This document shows positions 5,043 to 47,008 of a stretch of DNA of 64,000 bases, in pieces (the stretch's first letter is position 1; each line of letters begins with the position of its first letter). Made by a program: the position numbers and the translations under genes. The stretch comes from an uncultured virus (IMG/VR IMGVR_UViG_2061766007_000877) (taxonomy: Duplodnaviria > Heunggongvirae > Uroviricota > Caudoviricetes), in the IMG/VR virus record IMGVR_UViG_2061766007_000877. One strand, written 5' to 3'. The notes beneath the pieces were generated by a model that had not been told where the DNA came from, did not search any database, and was given only the letters and a program-made list of their open reading frames with translations.

Positions 5043-6122
5043 ATGGCAAAAATAGATTTCGCAAAACTTTATGGGGAAATGATCGACTTAACAGCCCGTG
5101 AGGAAAAGTTCTCGCCTTCAGGCAGCATTATTCTTGATGCAATTATTTCAAATGGTAGAGGAATTCCAGAAGGCACATTTATTGAAATCGCATCTGAATC
5201 AGGATGCGGTAAATCCACAATGTGTTTGCATATTGCAAAGAAGTATTGTTCACAGGGCAAGCGTGTTATTTATATCGACACTGAATCAGGTTTGAATGGA
5301 AATCAGATTGATTGCTTCGGTATGAGACAGTATGTAGACGACATGTTATTCATTCCTGTACGTNNNNNNNNNNNNNNNNATGATTTTCTTTTAAAGGTAC
5401 TTGAGGATAAAGATGTTGCTTTAATTATTTATGATAGTATAACAGCAACAGTCCCAGGTCGTTTAACTGAAAAGAATGTAGATGAAATGAACGAACCTGG
5501 TGTTGCAGCCCGTATTCAGTCAAACTTCATGCAGAAATTTAAAGCAAGGTTTAAGAACTCAAACAAAACTGTTATCTTTGTAAATCAATTAAGAACCAAA
5601 ATTGCAATGGGTTATGGGCAGGTTACAAAACTTGCACAGGCAGGTGGACAGGCATTAGGTTATTACATGGATGTTCGCATTATGATGAAGAAAATTAAAA
5701 TGCTTGAGCAAACATTGCCTGGGTATGAAAAACCTGTTCCTTATGGATGTGACCTAGCAATTTGGACTGATAAGAATCGTTATGCAAGACCTTTGTTAAA
5801 GAAAATGATTACAATTCATTTTGGTAAAGGTATTTCAAATGCAGGTGCAATTCGTTCTGTACTTGAATATCACGGTGTTGTAACAAGGGTATTGAGAAAA
5901 GGTTGGAATGTTAAATATCAAGGTGAAGATGTTCTTGTTGCGAAAGATGACATTGAAAACTTCATTAAAGATCATATTCAATACTTTGCTGAGGTTGCAG
6001 ATAGTTTAGGCGGAATTGCATTGATTCCAAATGCGGAAGATGAGGTTGTAGATTCATCAGCTGAACTTACAGAGAATGTGTCTGTTGATCTTGATGATGC
6101 TGACGAAACATCTGACGATTAG
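5043..6122 (+). CDS. recA: RecA/UvsX-family recombinase
   Basis: Walker A SESGCGKST, YIDTE, Walker B IIYDSI, FVNQLR, GGQAL, KNRY. Confidence 0.92.
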   Translation: MAKIDFAKLYGEMIDLTAREEKFSPSGSIILDAIISNGRGIPEGTFIEIASESGCGKSTMCLHIAKKYCSQGKRVIYIDTESGLNGNQIDCFGMRQYVDDMLFIPVRXXXXXXDFLLKVLEDKDVALIIYDSITATVPGRLTEKNVDEMNEPGVAARIQSNFMQKFKARFKNSNKTVIFVNQLRTKIAMGYGQVTKLAQAGGQALGYYMDVRIMMKKIKMLEQTLPGYEKPVPYGCDLAIWTDKNRYARPLLKKMITIHFGKGISNAGAIRSVLEYHGVVTRVLRKGWNVKYQGEDVLVAKDDIENFIKDHIQYFAEVADSLGGIALIPNAEDEVVDSSAELTENVSVDLDDADETSDD

Positions 6123-25800: not shown

Positions 25801-26661
25801 AATTATGGTTATCTTGGTACATCTAATTATAGATGGTATGTTGGTGCCATTAACAACCTTCTGTCAACAAATGCACTAACAGGATTGTTAGTAACATGCA
25901 GTACATCTGCAAATCAGCAGCAAAAGGATATTTCAATAGGCGGTCCTACTATGCTTGTAGGTAATAGTAGTACTTTAGGTGCAATACCATTTAATGGCTT
26001 TAGGATATCAGTTAAATTTGAAGAAACCAACTCAGCATCATCACCTACACTTTGTATAAATGGTAATGAAAATACTACACACCCTATAGTTTACAGGGGC
26101 ACATCAGCAGTAACAACAGGTAACTATTATAAATGGCAGGCAGGTGATATAGTTGATCTTGTATATGATAGTTCAAATTCAGTATATGTTATAGCTGGAT
26201 GGCAAACTTATGCTGTAAATGCATCAACAGCATCTACATGCTCTGGTAGATGCACAGCAATTTACGGAACAGGTAATTATTCAATACAAATGGCACTTGT
26301 TCTTGTAAAAAATACAACATCTACAAAATATTTTATACAAAGAGGCACATCACTTAAATTGAACACCAATTTATCAGCTAGAACATCACCAACCGGAACA
26401 GCTTCTACAATTACTGGACTTACAATAACAGCGTGGTATTTAACAAGGTTTGCATTGTCTAGTAATGCAAGTACTATATCGTCATCAATGTCAAATGACT
26501 TACGAATAGTGCCAACTCAGAGTGATGCCTCATCTATAACAGGTATCACTGATACAACACCAGTTGCATTAACAGGTACTACATTTTATAATTTAACTGA
26601 CATATTTGTGCTGGCAAACACTACAGTGTTTGTACCAGTGTTACTTTACAGATATTCATAA
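16846..26661 (+). CDS. very long tail fibre protein (~3270 aa, joined across N gaps)
   Basis: frame changes only at gaps ~17129-17160 and ~21266-21297; lectin-like YAQVEYIQS..GLYDVV domain; fibre repeats; followed by a fibre chaperone gene. Confidence 0.75.
18190..21920 (+). repeat. coding repeats in the tail fibre: 10x SGSYNDLSNKPTIP (a 7-unit tandem run of ~159 nt at ~20720-21920), VPTTRKVNNKALSSDITL units, TDTSDLTNGAGY/ETDPTVP units
   Basis: read directly from translation and sequence. Confidence 0.9.
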
Positions 26662-26680
26662 TCTTATTTGGAGATTAAAT

Positions 26681-27100
26681 ATGGACATTATTTCAGTAAA
26701 ATACATGGACATGTCAAAAAGTAATCTAATTGTTGAGTACACGAATGACACTGGTGAGTCAGAGTTTTATTCATTTAATATAGACAGCGAATATGAGCAG
26801 GATGATTATAGTGATCTAAGATCATCTATAATTAGTATGATTAAAAATGAAGACATTAAACCTGATTTCTCTGAAAGTGCAATTTTTATATCATCAAGCC
26901 TTGTAAGAGCTGCAAGAGATAGTATGTTAGAAGAAACTGACAAATACTTTACAATTTCAGATATGCCAGCGAAGAAAAATGAAGATCTTGAGTCTCTTAA
27001 AGAATACCGTCAGGCATTAAGAGACATTACACAGCAGAAGGGATTTCCAACTGATATAACATGGCCATCAAAACCGAAGTGGCTTGATGAAAGAAAGTAG
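26681..27100 (+). CDS. tail fibre assembly chaperone
   Basis: VRAARDSMLEETD...YRQALRDITQQKGFPTDITWPSKP; GGAG RBS. Confidence 0.85.
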   Translation: MDIISVKYMDMSKSNLIVEYTNDTGESEFYSFNIDSEYEQDDYSDLRSSIISMIKNEDIKPDFSESAIFISSSLVRAARDSMLEETDKYFTISDMPAKKNEDLESLKEYRQALRDITQQKGFPTDITWPSKPKWLDERK

Positions 27101-27178
27101 TACATATCAANNNNNNNNNNNNNNNNNNNNNNNNNNNNNNNNNNNACCCGCTTTTAACTGTGTGATATTTTATGCACT

Positions 27179-27270: not shown

Positions 27271-27299
27271 ATTCTTATAAGATTATTTTGGAGAGTGCA

Positions 27300-30200: not shown

Positions 30201-30460
30201 CATGCGGTATTCTGCGTAATGACTTCCTTCGTGTTTACAACCCAAGCAAAGAAGGCGAAGGCATCATAAGTTGCTACAGAGATACAAAACTCAGTTCCAA
30301 CGAAGCGGATCATATTGTTTGTATTCCAACAATTACACAATGGGTATCAAGAAGTCAGTTACTTCCAATGTATGGGTACTGGATTGTAGACGGTACAGCC
30401 TCGTTGTATGATGGTGACGAAGAGGTCGATGTTGTTTACGATGATGACCATCACGATTAA
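27300..30460 (+). CDS. large putative virion protein, family A copy 2, with an SH3b-like domain (~1050 aa, joined across gap)
   Basis: CEPTLMF, TGTGTDR, YKLLDYKAMYxYALGVLYG shared with 10940; TIPRNTELEVLDAYNGYYQV..GWID is SH3b-like. Confidence 0.65.
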
Positions 30461-30471
30461 TGGTATGTGTT

Positions 30472-31222
30472 ATGAGCGATGATAAACTATATTGCATAAA
30501 CGGTGAGTGGATGTCATACAGCGACGCCCATAACATATATGGCTACACATTATCGAAAGCTGTTCAGCTAACACTTTACAGACAAGATACTACACCTGTA
30601 AATATAAGAAAAGATACAAGTAATGACACATTATGGGATAGCCCAAACCACCGTTGGGTCGGCAGCATTGCAAATCTTAATCTATATCAAAAATTAGGTA
30701 AAATAACATTATATAAGTGTGAATCGCCTACTATATATGACAGCTATAATCAGGCGCTGTCAAGCACAACAGCTACACATGTAGACGTAGAAAGCCTAAT
30801 AGTTCCTATTACAGAACTTTATGAGACAGAGGGTATAACAACACATCCATGCAAAAATTATTACACAAAGGATGGTGAGATACTTTGCTGGTATGATGAT
30901 GTAGAAAATCTGTATTGGAACAACAAGGTTGGGTATAAAATNNNNNNNNNNNNNNNNNNNNNNNNNNNNNNNNNNCCCTATAGACATGTCTGATTTTGAC
31001 ATACTTAATATAGACTTACGCCCAATATTAGAGCAATATAATCTAACTCAAGATCAAATGTCTAATGTTGAATTTATGAGATTCAACGTCGAGATGAATG
31101 TTGAATTTCTTGATGAAGGAATGTCAATATCTGATTATGATATGCTCAATCTGCCTATAGAGATGCAGTTGCAATTATATAATGTTACTCAGCAAATGCA
31201 ACTTATATACATTAGGGTATAG
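30472..31222 (+). CDS. family B copy 2 (probably joined across gap)
   Basis: N-terminus homologous to 13483 and 33581. Confidence 0.55.
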
Positions 31223-31225
31223 CTT

Positions 31226-32479
31226 ATGAGAATTACACAGACATACGGATGGACGTCATCACCATCATTTGCAAATTATGCTGCTTTATTAGAAGAATTT
31301 AAGTTGCTTTTAATGGATTCTACTATAACGGAAATACCAGCAGCATTTGTAGGTCAATACAATAGTAGTTACAGCTTCAGTGGCTCATACGGTATTAGAG
31401 GATATCGTATGATACGAAAAGTTATACTTGAATGCCTAGATATAAGTGAAGATGATTCTGATATAGAACAATATTGCGACGTTCAATATCCAGCTACAAT
31501 ATACACATCACCAGACAGTTCAGAATATAAATATTCATGCATAGTTACTCGTATAGTAGACTCTAAAGCTGCAGATGCAACGAACAGGGTATACTATCTT
31601 ATAGGGACTTTCAGATATTATAACTACTATTACGACTACAATCGTAATACATTTGTTTTAGAGAATGTTATTTTATGCGAATCTTTGGGTACAGCTGAAA
31701 ATGAGCACAATCTTGCACTATCACAGTGGGGAAAGCCATATGCTGACAGATCAATTGGTAATTATCATTGGAATTATAATTTACCTATTACAGAATCTAA
31801 GATAGTAAGTCAGTCACTAGCAAGATATTATTCATCATCTACAAGTAGTTATAACTCTGGATATTATAATTGTAATGAAGCAATTAATGCAGTAAACAAT
31901 ATGTGCTTATACGGTATGTACTCCAGTTCAAGCTATTCGCAAATTTACCCAGACGCTTTGTTTAATTCATCAGGCTCTTCTTTTAAAATTCAAGGTCACT
32001 TAGACGATAATGGCATATTAACTTTAATTTATACAATTTATAACAATGTGTTAAATATTAAAAAAGTTAGATTTCCAAACGCTATGCTGTCAGATATACA
32101 CAGTTACTCATGTATAGCAGACGCATATAATGGAATGTTTGGCATATGGGTAAAAGGGTCATATCTTGGCGGTACAGACGGAGTAAATGATAGAGTATTT
32201 TCAGCATACAGACGTTGGCTTTTACCTACAATGAATACTTTAGATACTTTATTAGCAGGGCCAGGCGTGTTATATAGTGGCTCATCTGACAGTCAAATGT
32301 CAGAAGCATTTGTATTTGGTATAGTACAAACGCCATACTTTATAACAAATAACGCAGACATAACACATAATTTTCAAGCTGGTCAGCTTTTACAAGGTAA
32401 TACTTACATATACGGCGCAGTAGGCGATATTATATTACCATGGGATTCATCTGTACTATGGATGTCTCTATCTAGTTAG
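31226..32479 (+). CDS. Tyr/Ser-rich putative virion protein (family C)
   Basis: 417-aa ORF; C-terminal GQ..G.Y.Y..W motif shared with 32491 and 40865. Confidence 0.55.
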   Translation: MRITQTYGWTSSPSFANYAALLEEFKLLLMDSTITEIPAAFVGQYNSSYSFSGSYGIRGYRMIRKVILECLDISEDDSDIEQYCDVQYPATIYTSPDSSEYKYSCIVTRIVDSKAADATNRVYYLIGTFRYYNYYYDYNRNTFVLENVILCESLGTAENEHNLALSQWGKPYADRSIGNYHWNYNLPITESKIVSQSLARYYSSSTSSYNSGYYNCNEAINAVNNMCLYGMYSSSSYSQIYPDALFNSSGSSFKIQGHLDDNGILTLIYTIYNNVLNIKKVRFPNAMLSDIHSYSCIADAYNGMFGIWVKGSYLGGTDGVNDRVFSAYRRWLLPTMNTLDTLLAGPGVLYSGSSDSQMSEAFVFGIVQTPYFITNNADITHNFQAGQLLQGNTYIYGAVGDIILPWDSSVLWMSLSS

Positions 32480-32490
32480 TAGGTGGGTTT

Positions 32491-33489
32491 ATGACAACAA
32501 ATTATAACTATAGTAATATATACACGGCTTTAGAGACTACCGATGCAAATTTTAGAAGAGCTCTGGCTTTAGATGATTCAGTAGACATATCTTCAATATC
32601 ATCATCAATTAAATCGACCGTTTGTTCTGCATGGAGATTTCCTGCTGCATTAGCTGATGCATTTGGGTTAGACATAGATAATCCTTTACAAGTAAAAAGA
32701 GTATGTAGAACAAATTATTCATTATGCTATTGGGTAATGCAGCATCCAGCTAGTGGCCGATGGTACTTTTATGATACTAATTATAACTTTCATGAATCAT
32801 CTGCAGACTATTCACAGTGGGAAATGGCTAATCCATCTGGTACAACTGTGGCAGATATCGGGCTCATTGAGCCATACGTTGGTGGGTTTAACGTTAGTGC
32901 AGGTACTAAAGTTAGATGTATGACAGATTTAACAAATGGCATAGTAATATTATTATATAATGCTTATAATATACAAACCAATGAATCAGGTTCACCACAC
33001 GCCCCATGTGTGATTTCAGGGTTTAATAATCTTAATGGCTTACTAGGCTGTAGATTAGCAATAATTAGACCAAATATAACTAATGGTAATACTAGTTCAA
33101 ATTATGCCAATGCAGTATCATCAAATAGCGGAACTATATTAGACAATGGAATAAAGTATAATAGATTTAATATTAAGTGTTTTTGGTCAGAGCAACGATA
33201 CGATAATTCAAATAGAATAAATTATTATAATTCTTATGGTGCATATTATAATGTAAATTCTTCCACAAATTTAGTAGTGTCTCCATTTTGTGTTGAAACA
33301 GAAGGAAAATACGACGCTTTTTCTACAAACTCAATTGGGTTTGGTATAATACCAACATCAGTGGTAGGTAGAACTCCAACTGTAGGATTAAGCTTGCCAA
33401 TGGGATATCAATTTATGCAAGGACAGTATGTCCATTTAGGCGATGGCTATATAGTAAAATGGAATAGATCATTGGGTAGCTTGTGGTAA
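32491..33489 (+). CDS. Asn/Tyr-rich putative virion protein (family C)
   Basis: 332-aa ORF; shared C-terminal motif. Confidence 0.55.
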   Translation: MTTNYNYSNIYTALETTDANFRRALALDDSVDISSISSSIKSTVCSAWRFPAALADAFGLDIDNPLQVKRVCRTNYSLCYWVMQHPASGRWYFYDTNYNFHESSADYSQWEMANPSGTTVADIGLIEPYVGGFNVSAGTKVRCMTDLTNGIVILLYNAYNIQTNESGSPHAPCVISGFNNLNGLLGCRLAIIRPNITNGNTSSNYANAVSSNSGTILDNGIKYNRFNIKCFWSEQRYDNSNRINYYNSYGAYYNVNSSTNLVVSPFCVETEGKYDAFSTNSIGFGIIPTSVVGRTPTVGLSLPMGYQFMQGQYVHLGDGYIVKWNRSLGSLW

Positions 33490-33580
33490 TAGCATAAGAA
33501 ACTTTTAACAAATACCTATACTATATCAATNNNNNNNNNNNNNNNNNNNNNNNNTCTTTTTCTTTATAGTGGAAATACCT

Positions 33581-35377
33581 ATGAGTGATGAACGACTGTA
33601 TTATATAAAAGAAGCCATTGGGGATGATAAGTGGCTAACTTATGAACAAGCCCATCGCTATGGTTGTACTCATGTAAAGCCTAGCTCAATAACAGTATAT
33701 GATGCTAACTTACAAACAGTAACTTTCCGTGTAGACCCTGAAACAAATACATTCTTTGATCTTCGTCAAGATGTACCACATGACTGGTTAGTAAGTCTTG
33801 ATTCATTAGGTCTTTATAGAAAGCTTGGTAACATTACATTATATAGAAGTGAAGTACCTACAACTTATGAAAGTTATACTTCCATTGTTAGCTCATCAAC
33901 ACCAACACATGTGTTTATTCAAGGTGAAGGTTTAGTCTCGATAAGATATCTTTATGAGCGCAGAGGTATTACACAACATACTTGTAAGAACTTTATGATT
34001 GATAAAGGCATCTTACTTGTGTGGTATGATAGTGTTGAAGATCTGTATTGGGATAACCACTCTGATGTAATGACATGGGTCATTGAGCCTCCAGAGATAG
34101 AGGTTACAGAGAACAACTATATTATACCATTTCCAAATCCAATATATGAGCAAAAGCAGTGGGAATACGATTTATCTCAGCTACCATACACATTCACCTC
34201 TTATGGCACGTTTGTTCCTGCACATCAGACAGTAGAACTTATAACAGCCTTTAAGAACTGGGATCAGTGGGATTTAGAATCTGCACAGCAACGATGGACA
34301 AGAGATAGCAAAGACCATTGGGACATAATACCTGTACCTCCTATTAGACTTATTTCATTTGATGAAACGTCACAATATTTAAGTGAGGGAATGGTTTCAG
34401 CATTTTACGATGATATAATTAAAAATGGCATTCCAATCTATGTCATTGCAGAAGATGGCGTATATGATGCTGGAGGCACTTTAAGAGAGTTTGGGTATGC
34501 TTTTACAGGTGATTATGAATATGTATGGGTTGATTCTGATGCAGATGTACCATTGTATCAAGGTACAAATAAGTCCATTGCAGGACAGTCTCATGATGAC
34601 ATTTATGAAGTTTTATACTATATAAGTAGAAAATATTATTTACCAGAGACTGTACACAACATGGGTTATACTTTTACAAAGGGCGAAGACATAGAAATAT
34701 GGGACAGCAATCTTATTGGTAAAAAGTTATGGGAAGACACTCAATGGCTGTATTTAACACAATCAAACAAAAATCCAGTCTTTATACCAGTTATAGATGG
34801 CACCGCTAAAAAAGCATCTGCTAAGTTAATAAGCGGTAGTTACATATTAGACATTGAAGCAAAAGATGCTGGCGCAGACGGTAACAGATTATCTATAGGT
34901 GTATCTTACGGGCCGCCATTTTACTTTTACATTTATAGAGATGGCGTGCTTGTTCATTCAGGCACAAACAATAATACAGAAAATGATTACGTTGTAATAT
35001 CAGGTAGTTGGCCAGGAAACCAAACACCAGGAAGCCCAATCACAGCACAGCTATCAGGTGGTACAGATGTTGACTCAATTGGTGCTCCTCTTTATTACGA
35101 AGATGGCAGTCAGGTTACAGTAAATGACTATATTAATTATCGTATAACAAATACAGTTCAGCTTAAATCTTGTACGTGGGCAGAATTTCAACAGTTAAAT
35201 ACATACACATCTAGCCTATTTGCTGACTCTAGCAAGTTTAGATTCGTATCAGATGAACACGGTAACTTGTTATTAGAGTATACTGGCACACCAATACAGA
35301 CAGCAATGTTAGGCTTTTCATTTAATTGGGATCAACATGGAGAAGCTTTAGATGGGAAATGGACTGCAAACCCATAA
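33581..35377 (+). CDS. family B copy 3 with a long extension
   Basis: LYRKLGNITLY, GITQHTCKN, WYDSVEDLYWDN match 30472; CTATATCAAT motif upstream at 33521. Confidence 0.6.
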   Translation: MSDERLYYIKEAIGDDKWLTYEQAHRYGCTHVKPSSITVYDANLQTVTFRVDPETNTFFDLRQDVPHDWLVSLDSLGLYRKLGNITLYRSEVPTTYESYTSIVSSSTPTHVFIQGEGLVSIRYLYERRGITQHTCKNFMIDKGILLVWYDSVEDLYWDNHSDVMTWVIEPPEIEVTENNYIIPFPNPIYEQKQWEYDLSQLPYTFTSYGTFVPAHQTVELITAFKNWDQWDLESAQQRWTRDSKDHWDIIPVPPIRLISFDETSQYLSEGMVSAFYDDIIKNGIPIYVIAEDGVYDAGGTLREFGYAFTGDYEYVWVDSDADVPLYQGTNKSIAGQSHDDIYEVLYYISRKYYLPETVHNMGYTFTKGEDIEIWDSNLIGKKLWEDTQWLYLTQSNKNPVFIPVIDGTAKKASAKLISGSYILDIEAKDAGADGNRLSIGVSYGPPFYFYIYRDGVLVHSGTNNNTENDYVVISGSWPGNQTPGSPITAQLSGGTDVDSIGAPLYYEDGSQVTVNDYINYRITNTVQLKSCTWAEFQQLNTYTSSLFADSSKFRFVSDEHGNLLLEYTGTPIQTAMLGFSFNWDQHGEALDGKWTANP

Positions 35378-35380
35378 TAT

Positions 35381-36404
35381 GTGTACTTTACAAATCACGG
35401 TCGTCAAGCGCCAGGTATAAGTGTGTCTTCGAATGTAGCATACCCATTATATTATGCAGATGGTACACAGATACCATATAGTAGCTTTGACAGCCTTGAG
35501 ATTGTTCGTTTCATAAATCAAATATATGGCTCTGACACTATTACAGAAACTGACTTTGGTGATCAAAGCTACTATAGGCAATTTAATAATATTGGCGGTT
35601 ACTTATACTTTATAAAGAATAGTGAAAACACATGGACATATATGATAGGAATGTCCGTTATGTGGCAGAGGTCATACAACCATTACTTCTATTTACAGTC
35701 AGATGGATCATCAAAAACGTATACAAGTAATGACTATTGGTTTATTTTACAAACAAAAGAATACCTTGACAGATTCGGTTTTACTGAAGGTGTAGATTAC
35801 ATTGACACATCATGGACAGGTAGTTATCATTATACATTATTACCATCAATGTATAGTAGGTCACAGCTTATAGCTGCATGGGATAATAACGGTAATAATA
35901 TTACATCAAATTTAAGATTATCAACTTCAAGGCATATTACAATAAATGATGTACAGACCAGCATACTAACAGTAGACTCTACAAATGCTACATCTGAAAT
36001 AATGGGCTACTTATTAAAAGTTGTGCCATATAACATTACTTACTATGATTTAGTAGTTGCATGTAAGTATGATAGCTCATATAGCGATAGAGTTAGACCA
36101 GTTAACTTTACAAATACAGATGGTGGTAATTGGTGGGCAGAGGTATTAACAGAATTAGATAAAAACATCNNNNNNNNNNNNNNNNNNNGATACCTCATGG
36201 GGATTTTATGGTGAGGTAGACTACAATCCTTCGTACACTTATGAAGTATTACAATTTTATTCAGACTTGGGTAACACTCCTGTAGATTTAGACGTGTCTA
36301 AATTTTATATAGCTGAAAGTTCTGATGTAGCTGCTATTTTCTGCTCTGAACAAGATGGTACTGTTGTGAAGTCTTATAAATTAAGAATTTACTTTTATAA
36401 CTAG
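35381..36404 (+). CDS. hypothetical Tyr-rich protein, in frame with the upstream gene (joined across gap)
   Basis: GTG start 3 nt after TAA; frame after the 36170-36188 gap is open to TAG 36402-36404. Confidence 0.5.
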
Positions 36405-36424
36405 CATTTGTAGTGGGTTACACG

Positions 36425-39400
36425 ATGGCTAATCAAGTATATGAAAAATGGTGGATGAATTTAACAGAAGATGACTGTGGTATATATTATAGAAGCACAT
36501 GGTATTCTACTGAACAAGATCTTAATTCGGGAGGCNNNNNNNNNNNNNNNNNNNNNNNNNNNAAACTATATTTAGGTGAAGTATGGTCAATGTTTAAGTA
36601 CCATGGAGATTGGTACAATATAGACAACAACTATTATACGTATAGTCAGGCACATACATACGGCTATTCTGTAAATAGATCTATAACGCTCCACTACATC
36701 AATAAGACAAAGCTTACTCATTGTATAGGCTACTATAATTCAATAGACGGGTATTTTGTNNNNNNNNNNNNNNNNNNNNNNNNNNNNNNNNATTGCAAGA
36801 TTTGCATAATGCAAATTATGAAGTAGGTACGTCTAATGTACTAATTTATAAAACAGACGAGCTTGTTAAATATTCAGCAATAGTAAATGAAGTAGATAAT
36901 GTGCCTCATTATTTTGTACCTGATTTGTTTATAACAGATTGGATTACAGAAGACCAGTTTTCATTATATAAATTATCATTTCTACCTAGCGTAGAAATGA
37001 ATTGGAATTTGGGTGCATCATTTTCAAATAATGTTGGTCATGGTGGTCATAGCCAATATTCATCGAACTTTTATCAGTGCGAGCGTGGTTTTACACAGGT
37101 AACTATAAACAACATGCACAATTTGTTTGGTAAGGTAGCCACAAGGGGTGAGTGGGNNNNNNNNNNNNNNNNNNNNNNNNAAAAGTGATCTTGCTGGATA
37201 TAAGCTATGGTTCGAAGGATATAATGGCTCATCTGCTGGCGGTAGTATAACCAATGTGGTTGCTAGTTTTTACACAAATAACACATCTTTAAATGTGTAT
37301 AGCACAGCTTATGGTCAGTTTTCACCTATTGCAGTTACTTATAATAAGTCTACAGAAGTAGTAAAGGTATACAATAATTCAAATTACGCATACAGCGCAT
37401 TTAAGATACTTCATAACAACGAGATATACTACTACGTATTAGACAATAACCATAATTATTGGACAACTTCACTTGAATCAATAGGTTATTCACTATCGTA
37501 CAACGACTCGCTTAGGATAATATACACTTATTACGGTGATGTTGTCAATATACCTATAGGTTATCATATTAACAGAATTGACTGTAATATTGCATATACG
37601 TTTCCAAAGTATGTCACTACTGAAGGTGATCAGATGATAGTGGCATATGACGGGAAAGATGTTTATACCAATGAATTGAACTACATGATGTTACAGCAGT
37701 CAAGTAGTAACAACTATCCTTATTTGTGTATACTACAAGGCACTGGTTGGCAATCATCATCACCGCACTTAACAGGTGTTAGATTTTCATCAGATGGTAA
37801 TGACAATAATTCAAACGTAGCCATTTCAGAGGCATTATTTAACGGAAGTGACGCTTCCGCTGGTGACTATTTCATTTATATTAAAGGTACAGATTATAGT
37901 TCATACGCATTATCATCTCGTCCTGCACGCCTTTTCATGTATCCTACATATCAAAGCAAAGCCTCAGTAGATCCTTACATGTTTAAAGCACCTCAGTCAA
38001 TTTGGTCGTTTACAAATGGTGTATTTTCATGGTTAGGTGATACTACAGATTCACATGATTTGGCATATTACTATTACAATGATTGGAAAGAATCAACAGG
38101 TGGCAACGTAAGATTTAACATACATATAGAGCCTAATACAGACGCTGATATGATTAGAAATATAGTTATATACGATATTGTAAATGGCTCAACAAAGACA
38201 GTAGAGTATTGGCCACATAATGGCTATCTTTATAATTCAGTATATTATACAGAACAGCAGTTGTTATTATTAGGCTATTCACTTACAGACATACATAATG
38301 ACTATGAATGGGAATCTGTTACATCATTAAAATTATCAACTGAGCAAACACTTACAATATACTATAACAGTAACATAGGTTATGTTGTTAAAGATGTTGG
38401 TACATTTACCAGTGAAATAGCATTAAATAATGCTGGCTATATTATAAACCCAGTATATGATATATCACAAGTAAGACTTTACTTTGATGGTAATAACTTA
38501 AACGCAGATACTTATAAGACAAGACTATCTACAAATTGGGCTACTATAAATGATACACAGTATGTAAGACGGTTATATTTAGACAGCGAATTAACAGAGC
38601 CAGCTGTCTATGAATCAGGCAAGCTGTATTATTACAACGATTCACTATCATCAATGGATGCACCTGGGTATCATATAAATAATATTGCAAGATTCCCTGA
38701 CTATACAGTTACTGATAATAATCAAAAGACATCGCTTGTAAACATAATATCAGAGCATGGTACACCTAATATGCCACTTGTTACTAGTGACGAAGGTGGC
38801 GGTTTATGGATATACGGTTGCAATAACAAAGAAGGTACTAATACAGTTATAATACCAACATTTTATGCAGATTGTTATCGTACNNNNNNNNNNNNNNNNN
38901 TTATTTAGAAAATGAATATACTCTTAACTACATTACAACAGTTAATCATTCAAGATATTATCGCTCGCCTATTGGCGGCTTCTTTACAGAGCAGGAACTA
39001 CTAAGTAAAGGCTACACAAGAACACCGTCAAGCACAGTACTTTGTTCAGACACTAATGTAGAACTTAATATTGATGACATATATAACGCTATGTATAATA
39101 CCCAACATGGGTATTATATAAATAGTCACTGGTATGCAACTGTGCAAGCATTAAATAATGCTGGTTATTATTTAGTTGAAAAGTCAGAATTGAAAACTAT
39201 TTATTGTAAAACATCTCCAGGAGGTGGATGGTATTACAATAATAGTATAACAAGCAAGTCCACTTCTTTTAATACATCATACAAGAAGGCTGTATATACA
39301 GATTCATCATATACACAACTATGGCAATGGGACGGTCATAAATGGTTGGTTGACATTGAAGCCACAGGGCAGAGCGAGAGTTGGCTTAAATCAAGATTAA

Positions 39401-39609
39401 AAGATATGCCATCTTCAACTACAAGCGGTACAAATTGGACAATGCTAATTATGCCTATTACATCACAAGGCAACCCGCTGTCACAGTATAGATCAGCAGA
39501 AATAGGTGATCAGATGTATTTCTATATTGCAACAAACTATTATACATCATTGAGCACATCTGGCGATTACTGCACAGTTTCAAAAGTGTTTTATTGGAAA
39601 CTTATTTAG
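36425..39609 (+). CDS. large Tyr/Asn-rich putative receptor-binding protein (~1060 aa, joined across gaps)
   Basis: frame changes coincide with N gaps; repeated (W/Y)xT...LxxxGY motif. Confidence 0.55.
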
Positions 39610-39616
39610 GTATAGC

Positions 39617-40202
39617 ATATGAAAGTACAAAGATATTCTTATCGTATACCTGATTACTATGGTGATAATGATTGGCATATAGACAACATTGACAATGATA
39701 GTATATTTTCTTTAACGAATCCGCTTACAAGCGGATTCGTTAGGTTGAGCGGTCAGTGGATTAGGATGAGTACCTCATCCTATGACCAGTCAGTTATTTC
39801 TGAGGCAGGCGCTGGTTACTTTGTTGTTAAAAGTAATAGCAACTATCATGTTTCAAGTGGCGTTAGTTACATGTACATTGACATCACATCAAATGATACA
39901 TTGACATTCAAAGCAATGGCTAGATCGGAAATAAACTATGACTATGTAGTAGTTCAACTAGACGGCAGCACAATTTTTAATGGCAAAGGTGTGTCAAGCT
40001 TCTCTTCATTTACAGTATCAAACGCTGCTGGTAAGACACTTACAATATATTACCGTAAAGACAGCTCTGCTGATAATGATCAGGATCGTGGATATCTTGC
40101 AATACCTAACAGCTTTACACAAATAGAGGATTAGCATAATATATGAAAGTACCAAGATATTCTTATCGTATACCTGATTACTATGGTGATAATGATTGGC
40201 AT
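39617..40202 (+). repeat. 62-nt direct repeat (39617-39678 and 40141-40202), 1 mismatch
   Basis: atatgaaagtac(a/c)aagatattcttatcgtatacctgattactatggtgataatgattggcat occurs twice. Confidence 0.95.
39619..40134 (+). CDS. constant-leader protein 1 with a beta-sandwich (CUB/jelly-roll-like) domain
   Basis: MKVQRYSYRIPDYYGDNDWH leader; SEINYD..LTIYYRKDSS motif. Confidence 0.6.
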   Translation: MKVQRYSYRIPDYYGDNDWHIDNIDNDSIFSLTNPLTSGFVRLSGQWIRMSTSSYDQSVISEAGAGYFVVKSNSNYHVSSGVSYMYIDITSNDTLTFKAMARSEINYDYVVVQLDGSTIFNGKGVSSFSSFTVSNAAGKTLTIYYRKDSSADNDQDRGYLAIPNSFTQIED

Positions 40203-40811
40203 GTTTCATGCTATGAAAGTCAAGATTTAAGTACTATTGACCCAATGAAGATTGCTGTAAAAGGCACGTCATATACATTGCCGCGTTGGTTTGGCTCTGT
40301 TGTAAAATTAAAATCAGAATGGTTGTGGCGTCATAGTTTTTCAAGTATATCACAGAGTTATGCTTATCCATATACTGATGAAGGTGGCACATCAATATAT
40401 ACCTATTTATATTATACTAGACACTACAATGGATCAACCGGTTCAAATGGAAGTACAGCAGTAACTAGTTTAGGTGTTGGTGTAACAAGTACAAGCTATT
40501 ATTATGCAGCTGGTGGTTCAGTTATTGATAAGATTTACATTGTAGACAGCTCATTAAATAGACTGTCATGTTCACACATAAGATTTGGAGGATATCAGTC
40601 GTGGTATCCTGCAAACATAGGAGGGTATCCTTCATATCCAAGTACAGCTTCAAATAGAGGTATTATAGTAAAGTTTAAAGCGGTATATGAAGCCGATTTG
40701 CCGTCTGACATGTATAGTGTTGCTGACGGTATAATAACATGGAACACTTCACATCCTATTTACCGTTTGTTATATGGGCTTGAGGTTACATGTGTAAAAC
40801 TAGAACAGTAG
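40143..40811 (+). CDS. constant-leader protein 2
   Basis: MKVPRYSYRIPDYYGDNDWH leader, body unrelated to protein 1. Confidence 0.6.
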   Translation: MKVPRYSYRIPDYYGDNDWHVSCYESQDLSTIDPMKIAVKGTSYTLPRWFGSVVKLKSEWLWRHSFSSISQSYAYPYTDEGGTSIYTYLYYTRHYNGSTGSNGSTAVTSLGVGVTSTSYYYAAGGSVIDKIYIVDSSLNRLSCSHIRFGGYQSWYPANIGGYPSYPSTASNRGIIVKFKAVYEADLPSDMYSVADGIITWNTSHPIYRLLYGLEVTCVKLEQ

Positions 40812-40864
40812 TATCTATATAATAGCAAAGACTTTAACAATCCTGCTTATAAGGATATAACACT

Positions 40865-42406
40865 ATGGCTGAAGAATATAAAGGTTTTAGAATATTTAAT
40901 ACGATGTTTCAGCATTTATGGACAAACTCGCAAGGTGTTCAAATACAATATGAGGATGATACTTATGGTGAACCAGAAGCAGCTGTTGATGCAACAAAGA
41001 TACCAACTGGTGAGTTATATATAAATAACGAGTTTGCTGGTTTTTATCCTAACAGTAAATATGGTGTAAAAGCAATGCTTGAGAGAGCATGTGCGTGCTT
41101 AGTAAAAAACGATGGCGCAAATGGAAATGGTTGCGGGTGGGAACTAGATCAAGATCTGTACACACGGTTAAACGCACTTGATGGCACAGATAACGCATAT
41201 CACCCGTATAAGGAAAAGAACCCTTTATTATGGACTTCTAATGGTCAACAAACATATACTGACTCAGACGGCAAATTACATAAAGCATCTAAGTCTGTAG
41301 CGTTAGTGCCGTGCAGTTATGTGTATGCAATGTTTTTTAAGAACATTGTAACTGGTTATAAGCTTATGGTCGCACTTAATTATGTAGGAATGCATTCATA
41401 TTATAGTTCTTACACATCGTCAGGTGGGTTTAACGACGCAGGATGGCTATATAATCATGTTCATAGTGGTATGGGTTTAATTTTATCTGGTCATGAGTCA
41501 GAGTATTGTAGAATAGGTGGTTTTATGATGTCAATGATTCCTCCTGCAAATCCAGGAGGAGTTCAAGACGACTGGCACCCTGAGTTCTCTATAAGAAGTG
41601 ATAATTTTTACCCTCCAACAATGTTCCCTATTGTATGTCAGTACGCATCAAACGCATATTATAACGCGTACTATGGTAACGGCAGCACATCATATCCAAA
41701 TTATCCGTATGCAGCATATGGTAGTGCATCTTTAGTAAGAACTGGCACAACAGAAAGTCCAAATGGTAGCTCAGTTAATTATAGTGATAAGGGGTGTGTC
41801 GTTGGAACAAATTCAAAGATTTCTATACTTCTTGATACAAAGGGTAACATTGGCATAAGTTCTTATCATAAGTATACATACACGTCAAATCCAATTTTAT
41901 TTTTAGGGCCGTTCTTTAAGAAGAAGCTATATGACTATGACGAGCATCCACAGCGTTACTTATGTAGCTTTGGCTATGACTGTGCTAGAAATACAGATTA
42001 TAGAACTGACAGCCCTAGTAGTTCACAATATCTTTATAGTGGTTGGAGTGTATGTGCGTGGAACTCAACTTCTATAGGCAACAGTTATATGTTAGAAACT
42101 AATATATCAACTGGAGACCCAGCGTCAGATCAGATATATGCAGCCTATCCCGCTGTTGATGATACAGTACACACAAATTACCGTTATTCAAAAGCATGTT
42201 ACACACCAATCGGGTTGATTGATGAAGATGTCATTAGATGCTCAAGAACAAATGGTCTTATAAGAGGTCAGACATTTAATAATGGGGAATGGTGTTACAT
42301 TTACGGTGTAGGTGTTCAGACAGGTACAACAGCATCTTCATACCTGTATATGTCAATAAGATGGGATAAAGATAGGAATGGTACAAAAACCTTTATTGGC
42401 TACTAA
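40865..42406 (+). CDS. putative virion protein (family C C-terminal motif)
   Basis: AAGGA RBS; 513 aa; GQTFNNGEWCYIYG..IRWD. Confidence 0.6.
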   Translation: MAEEYKGFRIFNTMFQHLWTNSQGVQIQYEDDTYGEPEAAVDATKIPTGELYINNEFAGFYPNSKYGVKAMLERACACLVKNDGANGNGCGWELDQDLYTRLNALDGTDNAYHPYKEKNPLLWTSNGQQTYTDSDGKLHKASKSVALVPCSYVYAMFFKNIVTGYKLMVALNYVGMHSYYSSYTSSGGFNDAGWLYNHVHSGMGLILSGHESEYCRIGGFMMSMIPPANPGGVQDDWHPEFSIRSDNFYPPTMFPIVCQYASNAYYNAYYGNGSTSYPNYPYAAYGSASLVRTGTTESPNGSSVNYSDKGCVVGTNSKISILLDTKGNIGISSYHKYTYTSNPILFLGPFFKKKLYDYDEHPQRYLCSFGYDCARNTDYRTDSPSSSQYLYSGWSVCAWNSTSIGNSYMLETNISTGDPASDQIYAAYPAVDDTVHTNYRYSKACYTPIGLIDEDVIRCSRTNGLIRGQTFNNGEWCYIYGVGVQTGTTASSYLYMSIRWDKDRNGTKTFIGY

Positions 42407-42561
42407 TATCAAATAAAACGGATACCCAAAGTTCTCATTTCAAATCATATAAAGCAAGTACAACATTATATCTACTACATGTGGTAGATTTGTATTTGCT
42501 TATCTTTGTTACAAATTTTCTACTATTTGTTTAATCACTCTTGATTAAAAGGAAGGATATT

Positions 42562-43215
42562 ATGCTCAAAATTGATTGCCTTGATTTAGCCGACAATGAT
42601 TTTAATGTTGTTGAACTTGGCCACCTTGAAGGTGATGCTGTTGTTAAAGTAAGTGGTACACCAGTTGCTGCTGGTAAATTCCGTATGGCAAATGGCGGTA
42701 TGTGCACTATGTGTGCTATCGACGCTGCTGGTCGGTCATTAGACAATAGTGATGAACCAAAAGCCATTGAACTAAATAAACCTGAAGATTTAACTGTTGC
42801 ATTAAGTGGTACTTTAAAACGCAGCTTCCCTGTTCCTGCAGGTGTTACATCAGTTGATACTCGCTGCAAAGCTGCAACAGCTGTTCGTTTTGCCGGTCAG
42901 AGCCTTGGCGCACCCGATGCAAACGGCAAAGTTACTTTACCAGCCGCTGTTGACAAAGATCGCGAAGTTGAGTTAGAGATTGATGTTGCTGTTGCTACAG
43001 GTGCAGCTCATGACAGCAATGCAAATCACAAACTAGAAATTGTTCCTGACAACAAAGAAGGCCTCCTCCACTTTGCAATACTTTGCAATGTTGGTAAAGC
43101 TACTGACCACAAACCTAACAAGACACACTTCGAAGTTCGTGGTGCAAGACCTTGGAAGGTTATGGGCAAGGATCAACCTGTTGAGTTCAAACACCCAGCA
43201 GCCGCTGCTGAATAA
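42562..43215 (+). CDS. abundant head protein, probably capsid decoration
   Basis: capsid-like codon bias, Ala/Val/Gly beta-rich, own candidate promoter and terminator, just upstream of protease and MCP. Confidence 0.5.
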   Translation: MLKIDCLDLADNDFNVVELGHLEGDAVVKVSGTPVAAGKFRMANGGMCTMCAIDAAGRSLDNSDEPKAIELNKPEDLTVALSGTLKRSFPVPAGVTSVDTRCKAATAVRFAGQSLGAPDANGKVTLPAAVDKDREVELEIDVAVATGAAHDSNANHKLEIVPDNKEGLLHFAILCNVGKATDHKPNKTHFEVRGARPWKVMGKDQPVEFKHPAAAAE

Positions 43216-43241
43216 TTTATCACTGCTCTAAAGCAGATGCA

Positions 43242-43274
43242 AGCGCATATAGAAATTCTATATGCGCTATTTTT
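43242..43274 (+). terminator. intrinsic terminator
   Basis: AGCGCATATAGAA..TTCTATATGCGCT plus T tract. Confidence 0.8.
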
Positions 43275-43395
43275 ATCTTTGAATTTTGGTAAGTACCATT
43301 GTTGCAAATATATCAAATTAAAGTAATGGTTAGAAATCTTTTTATTAAAATATCTAATTCAAATTAGAGTGCCTTATATTACACAGGAGGCTAAC

Positions 43396-44415
43396 ATGAA
43401 GGTATATACTGAATCTATTATATCTGAAATGAAGCCTGTAAAACCTAGCAACGATTCAAGTGCTCTATGTTTTCTTGAAGGACCTTGCATGCAGTTCGGA
43501 AAGGTCAATAGAAATAATCGTATCTATTCAAGAAAACTTGTAGAAGATCGCATATTAAAAAATCCTACAGTGCAGGAAACAATAAAGAATCGTGCAATGC
43601 TTGGCGAAGGTGGTCACCCTGAGAACCGTGTAGATATTAGTTACCCTGAAGTTGCATTAGCCGTTGAAAAACTTTGGATTCCTGAAGGTGATGGCGATAT
43701 GTTATGGGGTAGATTTGCAATTCTCGACACACCTACAGGTCGTATTCTTAACACACTTGTTAAGTATGGTACAAAGCTTGGGATCTCTGCTCGTGCAGTT
43801 GCCGATTCAGTTCAGCGAGATGGCCACGAGGTTATATTAGAGAATTCTTACGAGCTAATTACATTTGATGCAGTTCCTGAGCCAGGGTTCAAATGTGCAA
43901 GACTTGAACAGGTTGACTCAGTATCAAAATCAGTAGACAAGATGTCAACAAAAGAGTTGAAAGAATCCGCTGCCGCACTACGTTCTTTCAAAAATCCAGT
44001 ATTTGAATCCCGTATTCGTATGCTTGATAAAGAAATTTGTAAACGTGAGAACAAAGCCGATATTCATGCTATTCTTGAATCAGTAAATCGTCTTGCAGAT
44101 GCTGTAGACAAATCCGCCAACAAATTACGGAATATCAAATACGAAAAGCAACTAACTTCTCTTATAAAAGAAGCAAAGGGCATTATTAGTGATGTTAAAC
44201 AGACAAAGTCAGTTATGAATGAGTCTAAACAAAGAACAAGCACTAATAAAAAAGAGTCAATATCTAATATATGTAATGAGGATATGAGTATTACAAAGTT
44301 TAATACTGAAACTCATCTAAATGAAAGTATCAATGTGTCAAAACTATTCAATAGTGATAATACATCTGCCTTAGAAAGAATGTGTTCAAAATTTAGGAGG
44401 AACTCTTATGAATAA
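43396..44415 (+). CDS. prohead protease, T4 gp21-like, with C-terminal helical extension
   Basis: NRNNRIY, GEGGHP, TPTGRIL, GISAR, FDAVPEPG; AGGAGG RBS. Confidence 0.9.
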   Translation: MKVYTESIISEMKPVKPSNDSSALCFLEGPCMQFGKVNRNNRIYSRKLVEDRILKNPTVQETIKNRAMLGEGGHPENRVDISYPEVALAVEKLWIPEGDGDMLWGRFAILDTPTGRILNTLVKYGTKLGISARAVADSVQRDGHEVILENSYELITFDAVPEPGFKCARLEQVDSVSKSVDKMSTKELKESAAALRSFKNPVFESRIRMLDKEICKRENKADIHAILESVNRLADAVDKSANKLRNIKYEKQLTSLIKEAKGIISDVKQTKSVMNESKQRTSTNKKESISNICNEDMSITKFNTETHLNESINVSKLFNSDNTSALERMCSKFRRNSYE

Positions 44416-45889
44416 TGTTGTTTTAGAAGCCTGGAAACAGAAGGTCGACGTTGTATCTGATATCCGCGGTGGTATGAGTGACGATGCTCGTGAGACACTT
44501 GCTAAAGTTCTTAACAATACAAACAATGCTCTTAACGATTTACGTGCTCTCCGTGGTATTAAAAATGAAAGCGTTTGCCGTGACGTTCCATCCTCACAGT
44601 ACAGTGGAATTGATTGGTTCCCTGAGCACTCCATTGACATGGTTAGTGCAATTTACGCAAGCCAGATTATTGATGATATTGTTTCCGTTCAGTCAATCGA
44701 CAGCCCAATTGGTGTAATCCGTTTCCTCCAGTATGTTTACGGTGAAACCCGTGGTCGTGCCGTTCGTAATGATGTTGCCATCGACGAATGGGGTGCAATG
44801 AGAGGTGTTGATGCCGGTAAACATGTTGCATGTGAACGCATCGTTGATGAACAAACTCGTGCAGCCGCTAATGGCACTGTTGATTGCTATCTACAGCGTC
44901 TTCCTGTTAAGGTTGAGAATGATAACCGTTTCTGTGATGAAGCCTACATTGATTTAGTTCGTCAGGGTGACAATCAGGCATATCGTGCTCGTAAAATCTC
45001 CGATGATTCTTGGAAGGTAATGCCTCTTGATTCAACCGGTCGTGAAGGTAATGCTGTTCAGAACATCGTGTTCTCATGCGATCCTGAATCTGGTCACTTA
45101 ATCCTTACAGATAATAATACTCCAAACAAAGTTGTTGTAACTGATGAGGCTACATTTGCTGTTACATATTTCCAGGATCTTGCATATTGCCCAACCGATT
45201 CAATGAATCTCGAACTTCGCCTTAAGACAGAAATGATTAAGGCCGTTCCTCACAAGATCCGTGCTAACTTCTCATTCGATGCTTCCTATGCCCTTTCAAA
45301 AGTTCATGGCATCAACATTGAGGAATCACTCGTTAACGCTTGCACAGCTGAAATTCGTCAGGAACGTGATAACGAAGTTATCAACATCCTCCGTAAACAA
45401 GCTGCTCTAACATCAACTTGGGACCGTACAATTACATCCTACATTTCACAGGCAGAACATGATCAGAGCTTCCTCGCTGAACTCTTTGCATGTGCTTCCC
45501 GTATCAATTATGAGACCAAACGTGGTTTTGGTAACTGGGTTGTTGTTGGTCGTCAGGGTCTCAATATTATTAAATCTGCTAACGGCCGTTTCAAAGCTGC
45601 TGGTGGTTCACTTCCTAACAATGGTGCATTTGTTGTTGGTACAATTGATGATGGTGACCTCAAGGTTATCTACTCACCATACTTCCCAGAAGATGAATAC
45701 CTCGTTGGTTACAAGGGTGCCGATAACAATGACGCTGGTTTCATTGTTGCTGACTTCCTCCCAATTACAAAGACCGATCTCGTAATGCTTGATGATTTCG
45801 TTGGTCGTCAGGGTCTCGTTAGTTACTATGGAACAAAGATGATCAATCCAAAAATGTATGTTTCTGGTAAGATCCTCCACAGCAAATAA
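44408..45889 (+). CDS. major capsid protein, T4 gp23-like
   Basis: IVSVQSIDSPIGVI, HKIRANFS, HGINIE, EIRQERDNEVI, GNWVVV, LVGYKG; strong highly-expressed codon bias. Confidence 0.92.
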   Translation: MNNVVLEAWKQKVDVVSDIRGGMSDDARETLAKVLNNTNNALNDLRALRGIKNESVCRDVPSSQYSGIDWFPEHSIDMVSAIYASQIIDDIVSVQSIDSPIGVIRFLQYVYGETRGRAVRNDVAIDEWGAMRGVDAGKHVACERIVDEQTRAAANGTVDCYLQRLPVKVENDNRFCDEAYIDLVRQGDNQAYRARKISDDSWKVMPLDSTGREGNAVQNIVFSCDPESGHLILTDNNTPNKVVVTDEATFAVTYFQDLAYCPTDSMNLELRLKTEMIKAVPHKIRANFSFDASYALSKVHGINIEESLVNACTAEIRQERDNEVINILRKQAALTSTWDRTITSYISQAEHDQSFLAELFACASRINYETKRGFGNWVVVGRQGLNIIKSANGRFKAAGGSLPNNGAFVVGTIDDGDLKVIYSPYFPEDEYLVGYKGADNNDAGFIVADFLPITKTDLVMLDDFVGRQGLVSYYGTKMINPKMYVSGKILHSK

Positions 45890-45974: not shown

Positions 45975-47008
45975 ATGAGTATGCTTGATAAAGTAGCTTC
46001 ACTTGTTAAAAAGTTTATACTACCAAAGAAAGATGAATGGGATTTGACAAACTCATTAAATCTTTATAAAGAATTCATTGATAAGGGTTACTATGCAAGT
46101 TTTGACCACANNNNNNNNNNNNNNNNNNNNNNNNNNNNNNNNNNNNATGGCTTGTTGAGTTGCTAATCGGTATTGCATTTTACGCAATAAAGTTTGATGA
46201 TTCTACAAAGTCATATTTCTCTCCAGAGCTTTTAAAGAAAGCAGGTTACATTGATCCATGTGTTGCACATGGCATTGTAAAAAGAGAATGGATAGAAAAG
46301 ACATCGACCGGTAAAAGCCCTATAGATCCACGATATGAAGGTGAAATTTCAGGTTTAGGAATTGCAAATTATGATTCTTCAGGGTTAACTGATTTCTATA
46401 CAGGAAAAATTCTTACAGCACCTCTTCCAAGACTTAATGAGAATAATACATTAGTATCTGTAACAGAGAAAAGAGAGGTAACTTATAAAGGAAAACAGAT
46501 AAAAGGATGGGGTCTTAGTTATGGTGATAGGTTGCTTTCACTAACAAATGTATGTTGGAATCCAGAGATTGCATGGGTTGATGATTCGTGTAATTTATGC
46601 TGTAAAGATACAGACGATCTAAAATTCAAATGTGTTGGTGCAAGTTACTCATCGAAGAATCTTCCATCTGTTGATAGAAAAATATGGTATGAGTGGTCAC
46701 GTTATTATTTAACAGGTGAAGGTTCAAGGGCTGTAAACAATGTAATTTTCCCTGCAGCAAAATGGTTTTGTTCTTATTGGGCGCCTTATTATTCATGGTC
46801 AAAGAATGGAAGATTACAAGACATAGATCAAATAATGATGTTAGCTGCAATTGCCAATTCAACACCGTCTATTGCAAAGAAGTTGTTTGGTAAATCTGTT
46901 ACACAGATGATTGATGCTTATGCAACGAACTCACACCGTAAGAGAAGGGTATATAACACACTTCGTGCAATTTCAATCGTACACTATTTGCAGGGCATAA
47001 AGTATTAG
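45975..47008 (+). CDS. hypothetical protein, possibly a cell-wall hydrolase (joined across gap)
   Basis: frame after the gap reads WLVELLIGIAF; basic, Trp/Tyr-rich; function speculative. Confidence 0.4.

Follow-up and report, generated by a model that had tools for sequence, protein, structure and literature searches.

A 38-residue N-terminal module on two unrelated protein bodies, and a probable gene-conversion tract within it, in an uncultivated T4-like phage

Why would two neighbouring phage genes begin with virtually the same DNA and then go on to encode unrelated proteins? The question is raised by a stretch of 64,000 nucleotides (nt) from an uncultured virus of the Caudoviricetes (IMG/VR record IMGVR_UViG_2061766007_000877), referred to here in its full length as the window, in which two adjacent genes, p1 and p2 (Table 1), share a 20-codon leader. 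An initial annotation, made from the letters and their open reading frames (ORFs), had read the pair as a possible exchangeable cassette system, in which a constant docking peptide is fused to variable binding domains and the repeated DNA serves as a recombination handle. Our analysis supports this reading in part. The shared part is the first half of an older N-terminal module of about 38 amino acids (aa) and not a free 20-aa cassette leader, and its DNA identity looks like the tract of a recent gene conversion or unequal exchange, 62-67 nt long. The explanation that we favour as a whole, and consider on balance probable, is that a common docking module carries two alternative adhesin-like virion proteins, with gain and loss driven by the repeat.

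The two copies of the core repeat, a 62-mer at 39617-39678 and 40141-40202, read ATATGAAAGTAC(A/C)AAG...GATTGGCAT and are identical save for one mismatch (A/C at 39629/40153). The mismatch falls in codon 4 and is nonsynonymous, giving Gln in p1 and Pro in p2, and all 19 identical leader residues use identical codons, for which P = 2.9e-6 under the codon usage of the window and saturated synonymous divergence. Two matches to the 62-mer occurred in 0 of 100 dinucleotide shuffles, and a repeat search stretches the match to 67 nt (96% identity, spacing 524). Outside the repeat the identity collapses: only 19 positions match in the following 60 nt, and 16 in the preceding 40. The one-base difference, the abrupt divergence past the leader and the visible DNA-level divergence of other paralogues had all been noted in the initial annotation and are borne out: six direct-repeat families of at least 30 nt are present in the whole window, and the leader pair alone reaches 96%, the remaining ones (tail-fibre repeats and one 50-nt pair) being 63-86% identical. 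The hexamer TAGCAT, which had also caught attention, does precede both starts (39613 and 40132), at 0 and 5 nt from the ATG, respectively, its second copy taking in the p1 stop codon. As a special signal it was rejected, given this unequal spacing, the lack of enrichment in the window (18 on the + strand versus about 22 expected) and its place in a spacer of the type 'AGG..TAGC.T ATG' that is found at other starts too.

At the protein level the similarity extends beyond the repeat. The homologues of p1 are P0006, P0012, P0015, P0017 and L001:6001-6513 (from an IMG/VR relative, L001), and those of p2 are P0001-P0005, P0014, P0016 and P0018; in a collection of 5.8 billion proteins, p2 has five homologues at 43-56% identity and p1 has one full-length homologue at 60%. 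A related but diverged leader opens every one of those p1 and p2 homologues. Aligned with hhalign, the two families match over columns 1-38 only (probability 98.6, E 5.3e-16), and pairwise BLASTP finds nothing convincing past residue 58, which together place the end of the similarity at about residue 38-58. The module has the consensus MKVP...YR.P.(Y/F)YGDNDWH..N......LS..NP. A profile of its first 40 or so residues, built from nine sequences and searched against 1,835,955,588 representatives at E <= 1e-3, gave 12 matches, 10 of them real and all 10 with the module at residues 1-5. Four of these carry p1-type bodies (P0006, P0012, P0015, P0017) and six carry p2-type bodies (P0001, P0003, P0004, P0014, P0016, P0018). 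The other two, P0013 (2872 aa) and P0019 (578 aa), are repeat proteins with 7-10 short matching stretches and were dropped as spurious. Six-frame searches with a hidden Markov model (HMM) found two module copies in the window and one in the locus of the relative, whose full record of 155,974 bp also holds one. Within these collections the module is confined to two protein families, and no wider body repertoire was found.

Neither protein has a significant match among PHROG, Pfam and PDB sequence families, and a PDB sequence search with the families of p1, p2 and the 513-aa protein encoded downstream gave nothing meaningful. No match to the DNA of 39000-42500, nor a tblastn match to p1 or p2, was found in 50,697 phage records. 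The best ESM Atlas scores were 0.80 for p2 and 0.93 for the 513-aa neighbour; shared-feature counts were low, and these are leads only. The isoelectric points (pI) are 4.74 for p1 (acidic) and 7.66 for p2 (about neutral).

Why, then, is the leader so similar at the DNA level within the window? Between phages, leaders are identical to those of the window at 7-19 of 20 residues, with bodies that are 35-60% identical, and the orthologous leader of L001 departs from them at 19-20 of 60 nt. Since leaders have diverged in this way, the DNA identity would be local and recent, the mark of homogenisation and not, as the initial annotation had it, of a standing constant region. The p1 leader of the window shares 18 of 20 residues with P0001, a p2-type protein, and just 8-12 of 20 with the six p1-type relatives, which points to p2 as the donor and makes p2 to p1 the probable direction of the conversion. 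Residue 4 is Pro, or a residue other than Gln, in all 14 comparable relatives. We regard this sequence-evolution part of the explanation as well supported and very likely correct.

Table 1. Features of the p1/p2 locus and of the recombinase gene, with positions in the window
Feature	Position	Strand	Remarks
UvsX-like recombinase	5043..6122	+	phrog_97, E 1.2e-37; likely exchange enzyme (inferred)
Upstream gene product, C-terminal ~235 aa	38902..39609	+	Conserved in relative (45% identity); candidate docking partner (inferred)
Leader repeat copy 1	39612..39678	+	Bases near the ribosome-binding site and p1 codons 1-20; 67-nt direct repeat and exact 62-mer
524-nt segment, leader 1 and p1 body	39617..40140	+	Missing from one X5 contig
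p1	39619..40134	+	171 aa: N-terminal module (residues 1-38) and MAM/CBM-like jelly-roll body (~39-165)
p1 ancestral N-terminal module, 38 aa	39619..39732	+	Just the first 20 codons DNA-identical to p2; hhalign
Leader repeat copy 2	40136..40202	+	p2 codons 1-20; 96% over 67 nt, 61/62 in the core
p2	40143..40811	+	222 aa: N-terminal module (residues 1-38) and beta-rich body without assigned fold
p2 ancestral N-terminal module, 38 aa	40143..40256	+	hhalign; profile matches start at residues 1-5
Downstream 513-aa gene	40865..42406	+	Homologue lies directly after the relative's single leader gene; alternative candidate partner

Related loci and public sequencing runs suggest that the gene pair is not always complete. 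A degenerate leader pattern recovered one related lineage in IMG/VR (two contigs), with the same contig in JGI metagenomes, and had no match in GTDB genomes. An exact 48-mer and a 9-residue back-translated pattern had no match in IMG/VR, the capsid protein as a probe gave no confirmed locus there, and profile-based locus searches of IMG/VR and JGI metagenomes yielded nothing beyond the one lineage. In the relative, the gene order is a 534-aa protein, a single p1-type gene and directly thereafter the 513-aa homologue, followed by the protease and the capsid gene; over its last ~220 residues, the 534-aa protein is 45% identical to the end of the gene product that lies upstream of p1 in the window. 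With a single p1-type gene directly before the 513-aa homologue, p2 appears to be either extra in the window phage or lost in the relative.

Logan contigs of four runs were placed on 38901-42500, with X1 as the possible source and X3, X4 and X5 as independent runs. In X1, contigs break at both copies of the repeat, the common 49-mer forms a unitig of its own with a depth of 21.7 compared with 8.1-9.4 for the flanks, and contig 4 (39649-40183) runs from the p1 body into leader 2. Contig 9 of X3 (39678-41385, depth 10.8) passes from the p1 body through leader 2 to p2 and beyond, and an X4 contig (39322-39734) starts in the upstream gene, crosses leader 1 and enters p1. One apparent X3 joint, 40893 to 41502, was set aside as another organism or a repeat (side of 22, with 1127 foreign letters between). 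In X5, which belongs to a third study, a single contig of 395 nt passes straight from 39616 to 40141, leaving out precisely 524 nt, the very excision that the initial annotation had predicted; the contig has a depth of 3.43, a shorter side of 144 nt and 12 ambiguous bases, and in p2 it shows the same three differences as X3, which has p1. No X5 contig covers 39621-40100, yet 10 of 30 bins are empty in this run, and the gap alone says nothing. The locus is thus found with p1 and p2 in the window and X3, with p2 only in X5 and with p1 only in the distant relative. We think it likely that the X5 deletion is real, and it is an attractive, natural candidate deletion variant.

The bodies were compared at the level of predicted structure. 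AlphaFold2 models, made from shallow alignments of 6 and 10 rows, reached a pLDDT of 71.3 and a pTM of 0.69 for p2, with residues 1-32 below 50, and 77.1 and 0.71 for p1, with residues 1-38 as low-confidence coil; the module itself is modelled as low-confidence coil or short strands and has hardly any regular structure. Over residues 37-165, the body of p1 superposes on the C-terminal domain of Vibrio VesC (6bqm; VIA-align Z 10.7, rmsd 2.5, 110 aligned), MAM domains (Z 8.0-8.5) and CBM16 (Z 7.1-7.4), with Foldseek E-values of 3e-4 to 3e-3. In this modelled form, it would be a jelly roll of the MAM/CBM type, at the level of fold only: VesC, the PTPRK MAM domain (8a1f) and CBM16 (2zex) score Z 10.7, 8.2 and 7.4 over 108-121 aligned residues but share only 10-14% sequence identity with the p1 body, and a common fold shows no function. 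The same domain also terminates 16 longer proteins, and in several of these it is accompanied by BspA-type LRR_5 repeats or Lcl_C, company that points to a surface-binding role. The domain is unnamed, has no Pfam model and is about 125 aa long, with the motifs ...SNSNY.V..G.A.MYIDI... and ...YRKDSS....DRGYL.IP; besides its C-terminal place in the BspA-type LRR_5 and Lcl_C proteins (P0020-P0035), it stands alone as proteins of about 100 aa (P0007-P0011).

Taken together, these observations suggest the following course of events. The genes p1 and p2 would be old paralogues at their front end only, where a module of some 38 residues has become fused to unrelated beta-rich bodies. A conversion tract that begins 2 nt ahead of the ATG and reaches codon 20 would recently have overwritten the p1 leader with that of p2, and Gln4 of p1 would have arisen after the conversion. 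The module may be a virion-attachment (docking) element that plugs both proteins onto the same fibre or baseplate site, on the product of a neighbouring gene; a first candidate is the conserved end of the upstream gene product and a second the 513-aa protein. The bodies would then act as alternative binding heads, that of p1 being MAM/CBM-like. As a side effect, the 62-nt direct repeat would offer a substrate to the phage's own homologous recombination, presumably through the encoded UvsX-like protein, and recombination between the copies would remove leader 1 and the p1 body and leave a p2-only phage. That an enzyme of the RecA/UvsX type might carry out such exchange had been proposed in the initial annotation, and the window does encode one. 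The docking peptide of that annotation also survives in part: an N-terminal peptide common to unrelated bodies is present, forms a low-confidence tail in the AlphaFold2 models and precedes, in p1, a jelly roll of a binding type, but the unit is about 38 aa and not 16-20, and from phage to phage it varies as the remainder of the protein does. For docking and receptor binding, which we deduce from gene position, predicted disorder, the p1 fold and analogy, we put the chances at about even.

Several points weigh against this explanation. With p1 and p2 outside all PHROG, Pfam and PDB sequence families, their membership of the virion is deduced from position; the neighbouring genes have no Pfam or PHROG family either, and a T4 gp10-like branching domain was not detected in family searches. 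The low N-terminal pLDDT can also stem from shallow alignments. The fold of the p2 body had no match at E <= 1e-3 in Foldseek searches of PDB and BFVD, and its best VIA-align score against 48,161 chains was Z 5.2 over 57-59 residues, which is noise level. The suggested direction of conversion hangs on a single p2-type relative, P0001. The deletion is one 395-nt contig with a depth of 3.43, from a run covering 20 of 30 bins, and could have arisen if a k-mer path misthreaded the repeat while both p1 junctions went unsampled at about three-fold depth. Finally, the first position of the X3 contig is precisely the one at which leader 1 ends (39678), and the contig crosses leader 2 unbroken, unlike those of X1; the X3 leaders may be less alike than those of the window, and strains may differ in this respect.

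The large ORFs of the window all have the + orientation. Among the products recognised through PHROG are a portal protein (7894-9405), a head maturation protease (43369-44415), a major head protein (44408-45889), a tail tube protein, helicases and, at 17166-27100, tail-fibre proteins together with a Tfa-like assembly protein. By tblastn, the capsid protein comes closest to a Listeria myophage (30% identity), its 1965 matching records being mostly T4-type, and the public runs containing the stretch are bovine gut metagenomes; the phage is a distant, uncultivated T4-like myophage. The genes p1 and p2 belong to the late structural operon, and 8-9 nt separate them from their neighbours. They stand at the end of 15 kb of Tyr/Asn-rich genes without family (27288-42406), a run situated between the fibre genes and the head genes, and the next terminator-like site is at 43242-43268. 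Some further features of this region were noted in passing. In the tail-fibre genes (17166-21308 and 21199-26661), a repeat of 159 nt (53 aa) occurs in up to 11 copies that are 63-86% identical as DNA (18204-21852). The stretch 27288-39609 and its counterpart L001:640-5995 form a mosaic, expandable module of Tyr/Asn-rich genes without family: the relative's 534-aa protein corresponds to the N-terminal part of 33569-35377 (33%) joined to the C-terminal part of 38872-39609 (45%), 30460-30993 is paralogous to the N terminus of 33569-35377 (43%), 27288-28526 matches two genes of the relative, and by eye a motif 'YY..(T/S).(E/Q)..L...GY' seems recurrent in the proteins of 27288-39609. The window contains 36 runs of N (13-65 nt; e.g. 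36760-36791, 37157-37180, 38884-38900, 27111-27145, 33531-33554 and 46111-46146), many at or near gene junctions, and the frame changes at three of them within 36413-39609. The protein that the initial annotation placed at 36425-39609 reads as four ORF pieces (36413-36826, 36793-37188, 37148-38908 and 38872-39609) and may be several genes. Just 5' of the head protease, 42541-43215 encodes a 224-aa Ala/Val/Gly-rich protein (local G+C of 0.39-0.40 versus ~0.34) with a weak match to a 213-aa protein of the relative (34% over 79 aa); it is followed by the strong terminator-like hairpin at 43242-43268, and a sub-threshold Rfam match to the trpB motif overlaps 43197-43279.

Other explanations of the locus were weighed as well. 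A bolder form of the proposal above holds that the leader is repeatedly re-homogenised and acts as a built-in switch, with recombination, also with co-infecting relatives, yielding p1+p2, p2-only and swapped progeny. We consider this unlikely; if it were true, the phage population would hedge its bets over adhesins, and through them over host range, in the manner of bacterial phase variation, and the switching would sit on a previously undescribed 38-aa docking module. The exchangeable cassette system, with one constant leader serving many bodies and the repeat kept as a handle, is in our view decidedly unlikely. It would account for one leader on two unrelated bodies and for the copy-number polymorphism seen among the window, X5 and L001, and T-even phages are described, in the excerpted text of PMC3157838, as swapping adhesin parts by recombination at conserved motifs. 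Against it, the search of 1,835,955,588 representatives and the one IMG/VR/JGI relative reveal two body families only, with all 10 real matches of p1 or p2 type; there are two copies in the window and one in the 155,974-bp relative, which is no constant-N/variable-C array; and leaders that diverge between phages leave no population-wide constant DNA handle.

A third possibility, for which we also see little likelihood, is that the leader is a capsid-targeting propeptide, like the capsid-targeting sequence (CTS) of the T4 internal proteins (IPs) IPI-III, which would bring p1 and p2 into the prohead and then be removed by the prohead protease, whose gene lies two genes downstream. The phage is T4-like, and p1 and p2 lie near the genes of the head protease and the capsid protein. 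A cleavage site of the Leu/Ile-x-Glu type would be expected, but residues 1-38 of p1 contain no Glu and so no such site, and the position of a Glu site is not conserved in the module alignment. The body of p1 belongs to an extracellular type, a MAM/CBM-like domain common to surface-type proteins with leucine-rich repeats (LRRs), and the module has 38 aa versus 10 for the CTS. In T4, identical propeptides do occur on the diverged bodies of IPII and IPIII, and the CTS has been proposed to load varied proteins (PMC9026906, as excerpted); the same text describes the IPs as 'basic proteins', in contrast to the pI values of p1 and p2, and for the cleavage motif its excerpt mentions only a gp21 'cleavage logo'.

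Very improbable, by comparison, is selection at the nucleotide level, by which the first 62 nt would be kept alike as a regulatory element of the mRNA (a translational operator or RNA structure) with no recombination involved. The identity does begin 2 nt before the ATG and takes in the initiation region. Yet no stable structure was found in the leader RNA by comparison with shuffles (z -0.75, -0.81 and +0.55), Rfam has no match over 38000-43500 save the sub-threshold one at 43197, and the differences in L001 show that the DNA is not conserved between phages; with no RNA structure, no Rfam family and no conservation across phages, recombinational copying is left as the explanation. An assembly artefact, in which p1-only and p2-only strain variants were stitched in tandem through the leader, is hardly credible: the contigs of X1 do break at both copies, but X1 contig 4 and X3 contig 9 cross from the p1 body into leader 2, the latter reaching p2, an X4 contig crosses leader 1, and the 49-mer has about twice the depth of its flanks.

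We return to the favoured explanation, a docking module shared by two adhesin-like proteins, and to the systems that it recalls. The T4 CTS is the main rival analogy and fits poorly: like the leader studied here, it is an identical N-terminal peptide on diverged proteins (IPI, IPII and IPIII) of one T4-type genome (PMC9026906, in the part available), but the p1 module has no Glu cleavage site, p1 and p2 are not basic, and the p1 body has a fold of a surface-binding type. Closer are the gp38 adhesins of T-even phages, which have an N-terminal attachment domain and undergo exchanges at conserved motifs (Trojet et al. 2011, PMC3157838, as excerpted). In T2/T6-type phages, which belong to the same T4 superfamily, gp38 is likewise a small protein encoded just after a fibre-type gene, with an N-terminal attachment part and a C-terminal specificity part, and recombination at conserved stretches reshuffles the locus. 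It differs in lacking homology to p1 and p2 (no PHROG or Pfam match, and no tblastn match in 50,697 phage records), in its architecture of glycine-rich motifs and hypervariable segments, which is not shown for p1 and p2, and in being one gene and not two in tandem, with a much longer attachment part. The gene of gp38 directly follows the distal tail-fibre gene, and gp38 binds the C terminus of that gene's product; the gene upstream of p1 has an end conserved in the relative (45% identity) and no assigned family.

By analogy, p1 and p2 would work most like the 'conserved peptide' of secondary receptor-binding proteins (RBPs), as well as resembling the attachment domain of gp38. According to the excerpted texts (Latka et al. 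2019, 2026; PMC6872550, PMC13352976), this peptide measures 29 aa in KP32, and K1E, K1-5 and SP6 have versions of 7 and 11 aa; incorporation of RBP2 into the virion requires its 29-aa peptide, which tolerates foreign bodies. In these branched systems (Klebsiella phages KP32, KP34 and K11; K1E, K1-5 and SP6), as at the locus described here, a short N-terminal peptide sits on differing bodies, is separable from the folded body and belongs to a gene adjoining that of the presumed carrier. The differences are that the peptides have 7-29 aa compared with about 38 aa here and show no sequence relation to it, that the bodies here are beta domains of 133 and 184 aa and not beta-helical depolymerases, and that here two adjacent genes carry a peptide identical in DNA, whose attachment is putative. 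In the branched systems the primary RBP bears a T4 gp10-like branching domain as docking site; family searches detected none in the neighbours of p1 and p2. Seen against these systems, p1 and p2 are a family-less example of a known design and no new class of mechanism. Their locus brings together a gene-conversion tract of about 62 nt, the tandem gene pair in independent samples and what may be a precise deletion between the copies, and would be a clean natural illustration of the way in which short stretches of homology reshape the adhesin genes of phages. Should the module prove to be a docking tag, it would let small binding domains be plugged, in compact form, onto a T4-like phage of the rumen that is uncultivated. 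It would then represent a family unrelated in sequence to the known 'conserved peptide' and gp38-type attachment parts, and would help to read host-range loci in metagenomic phages.

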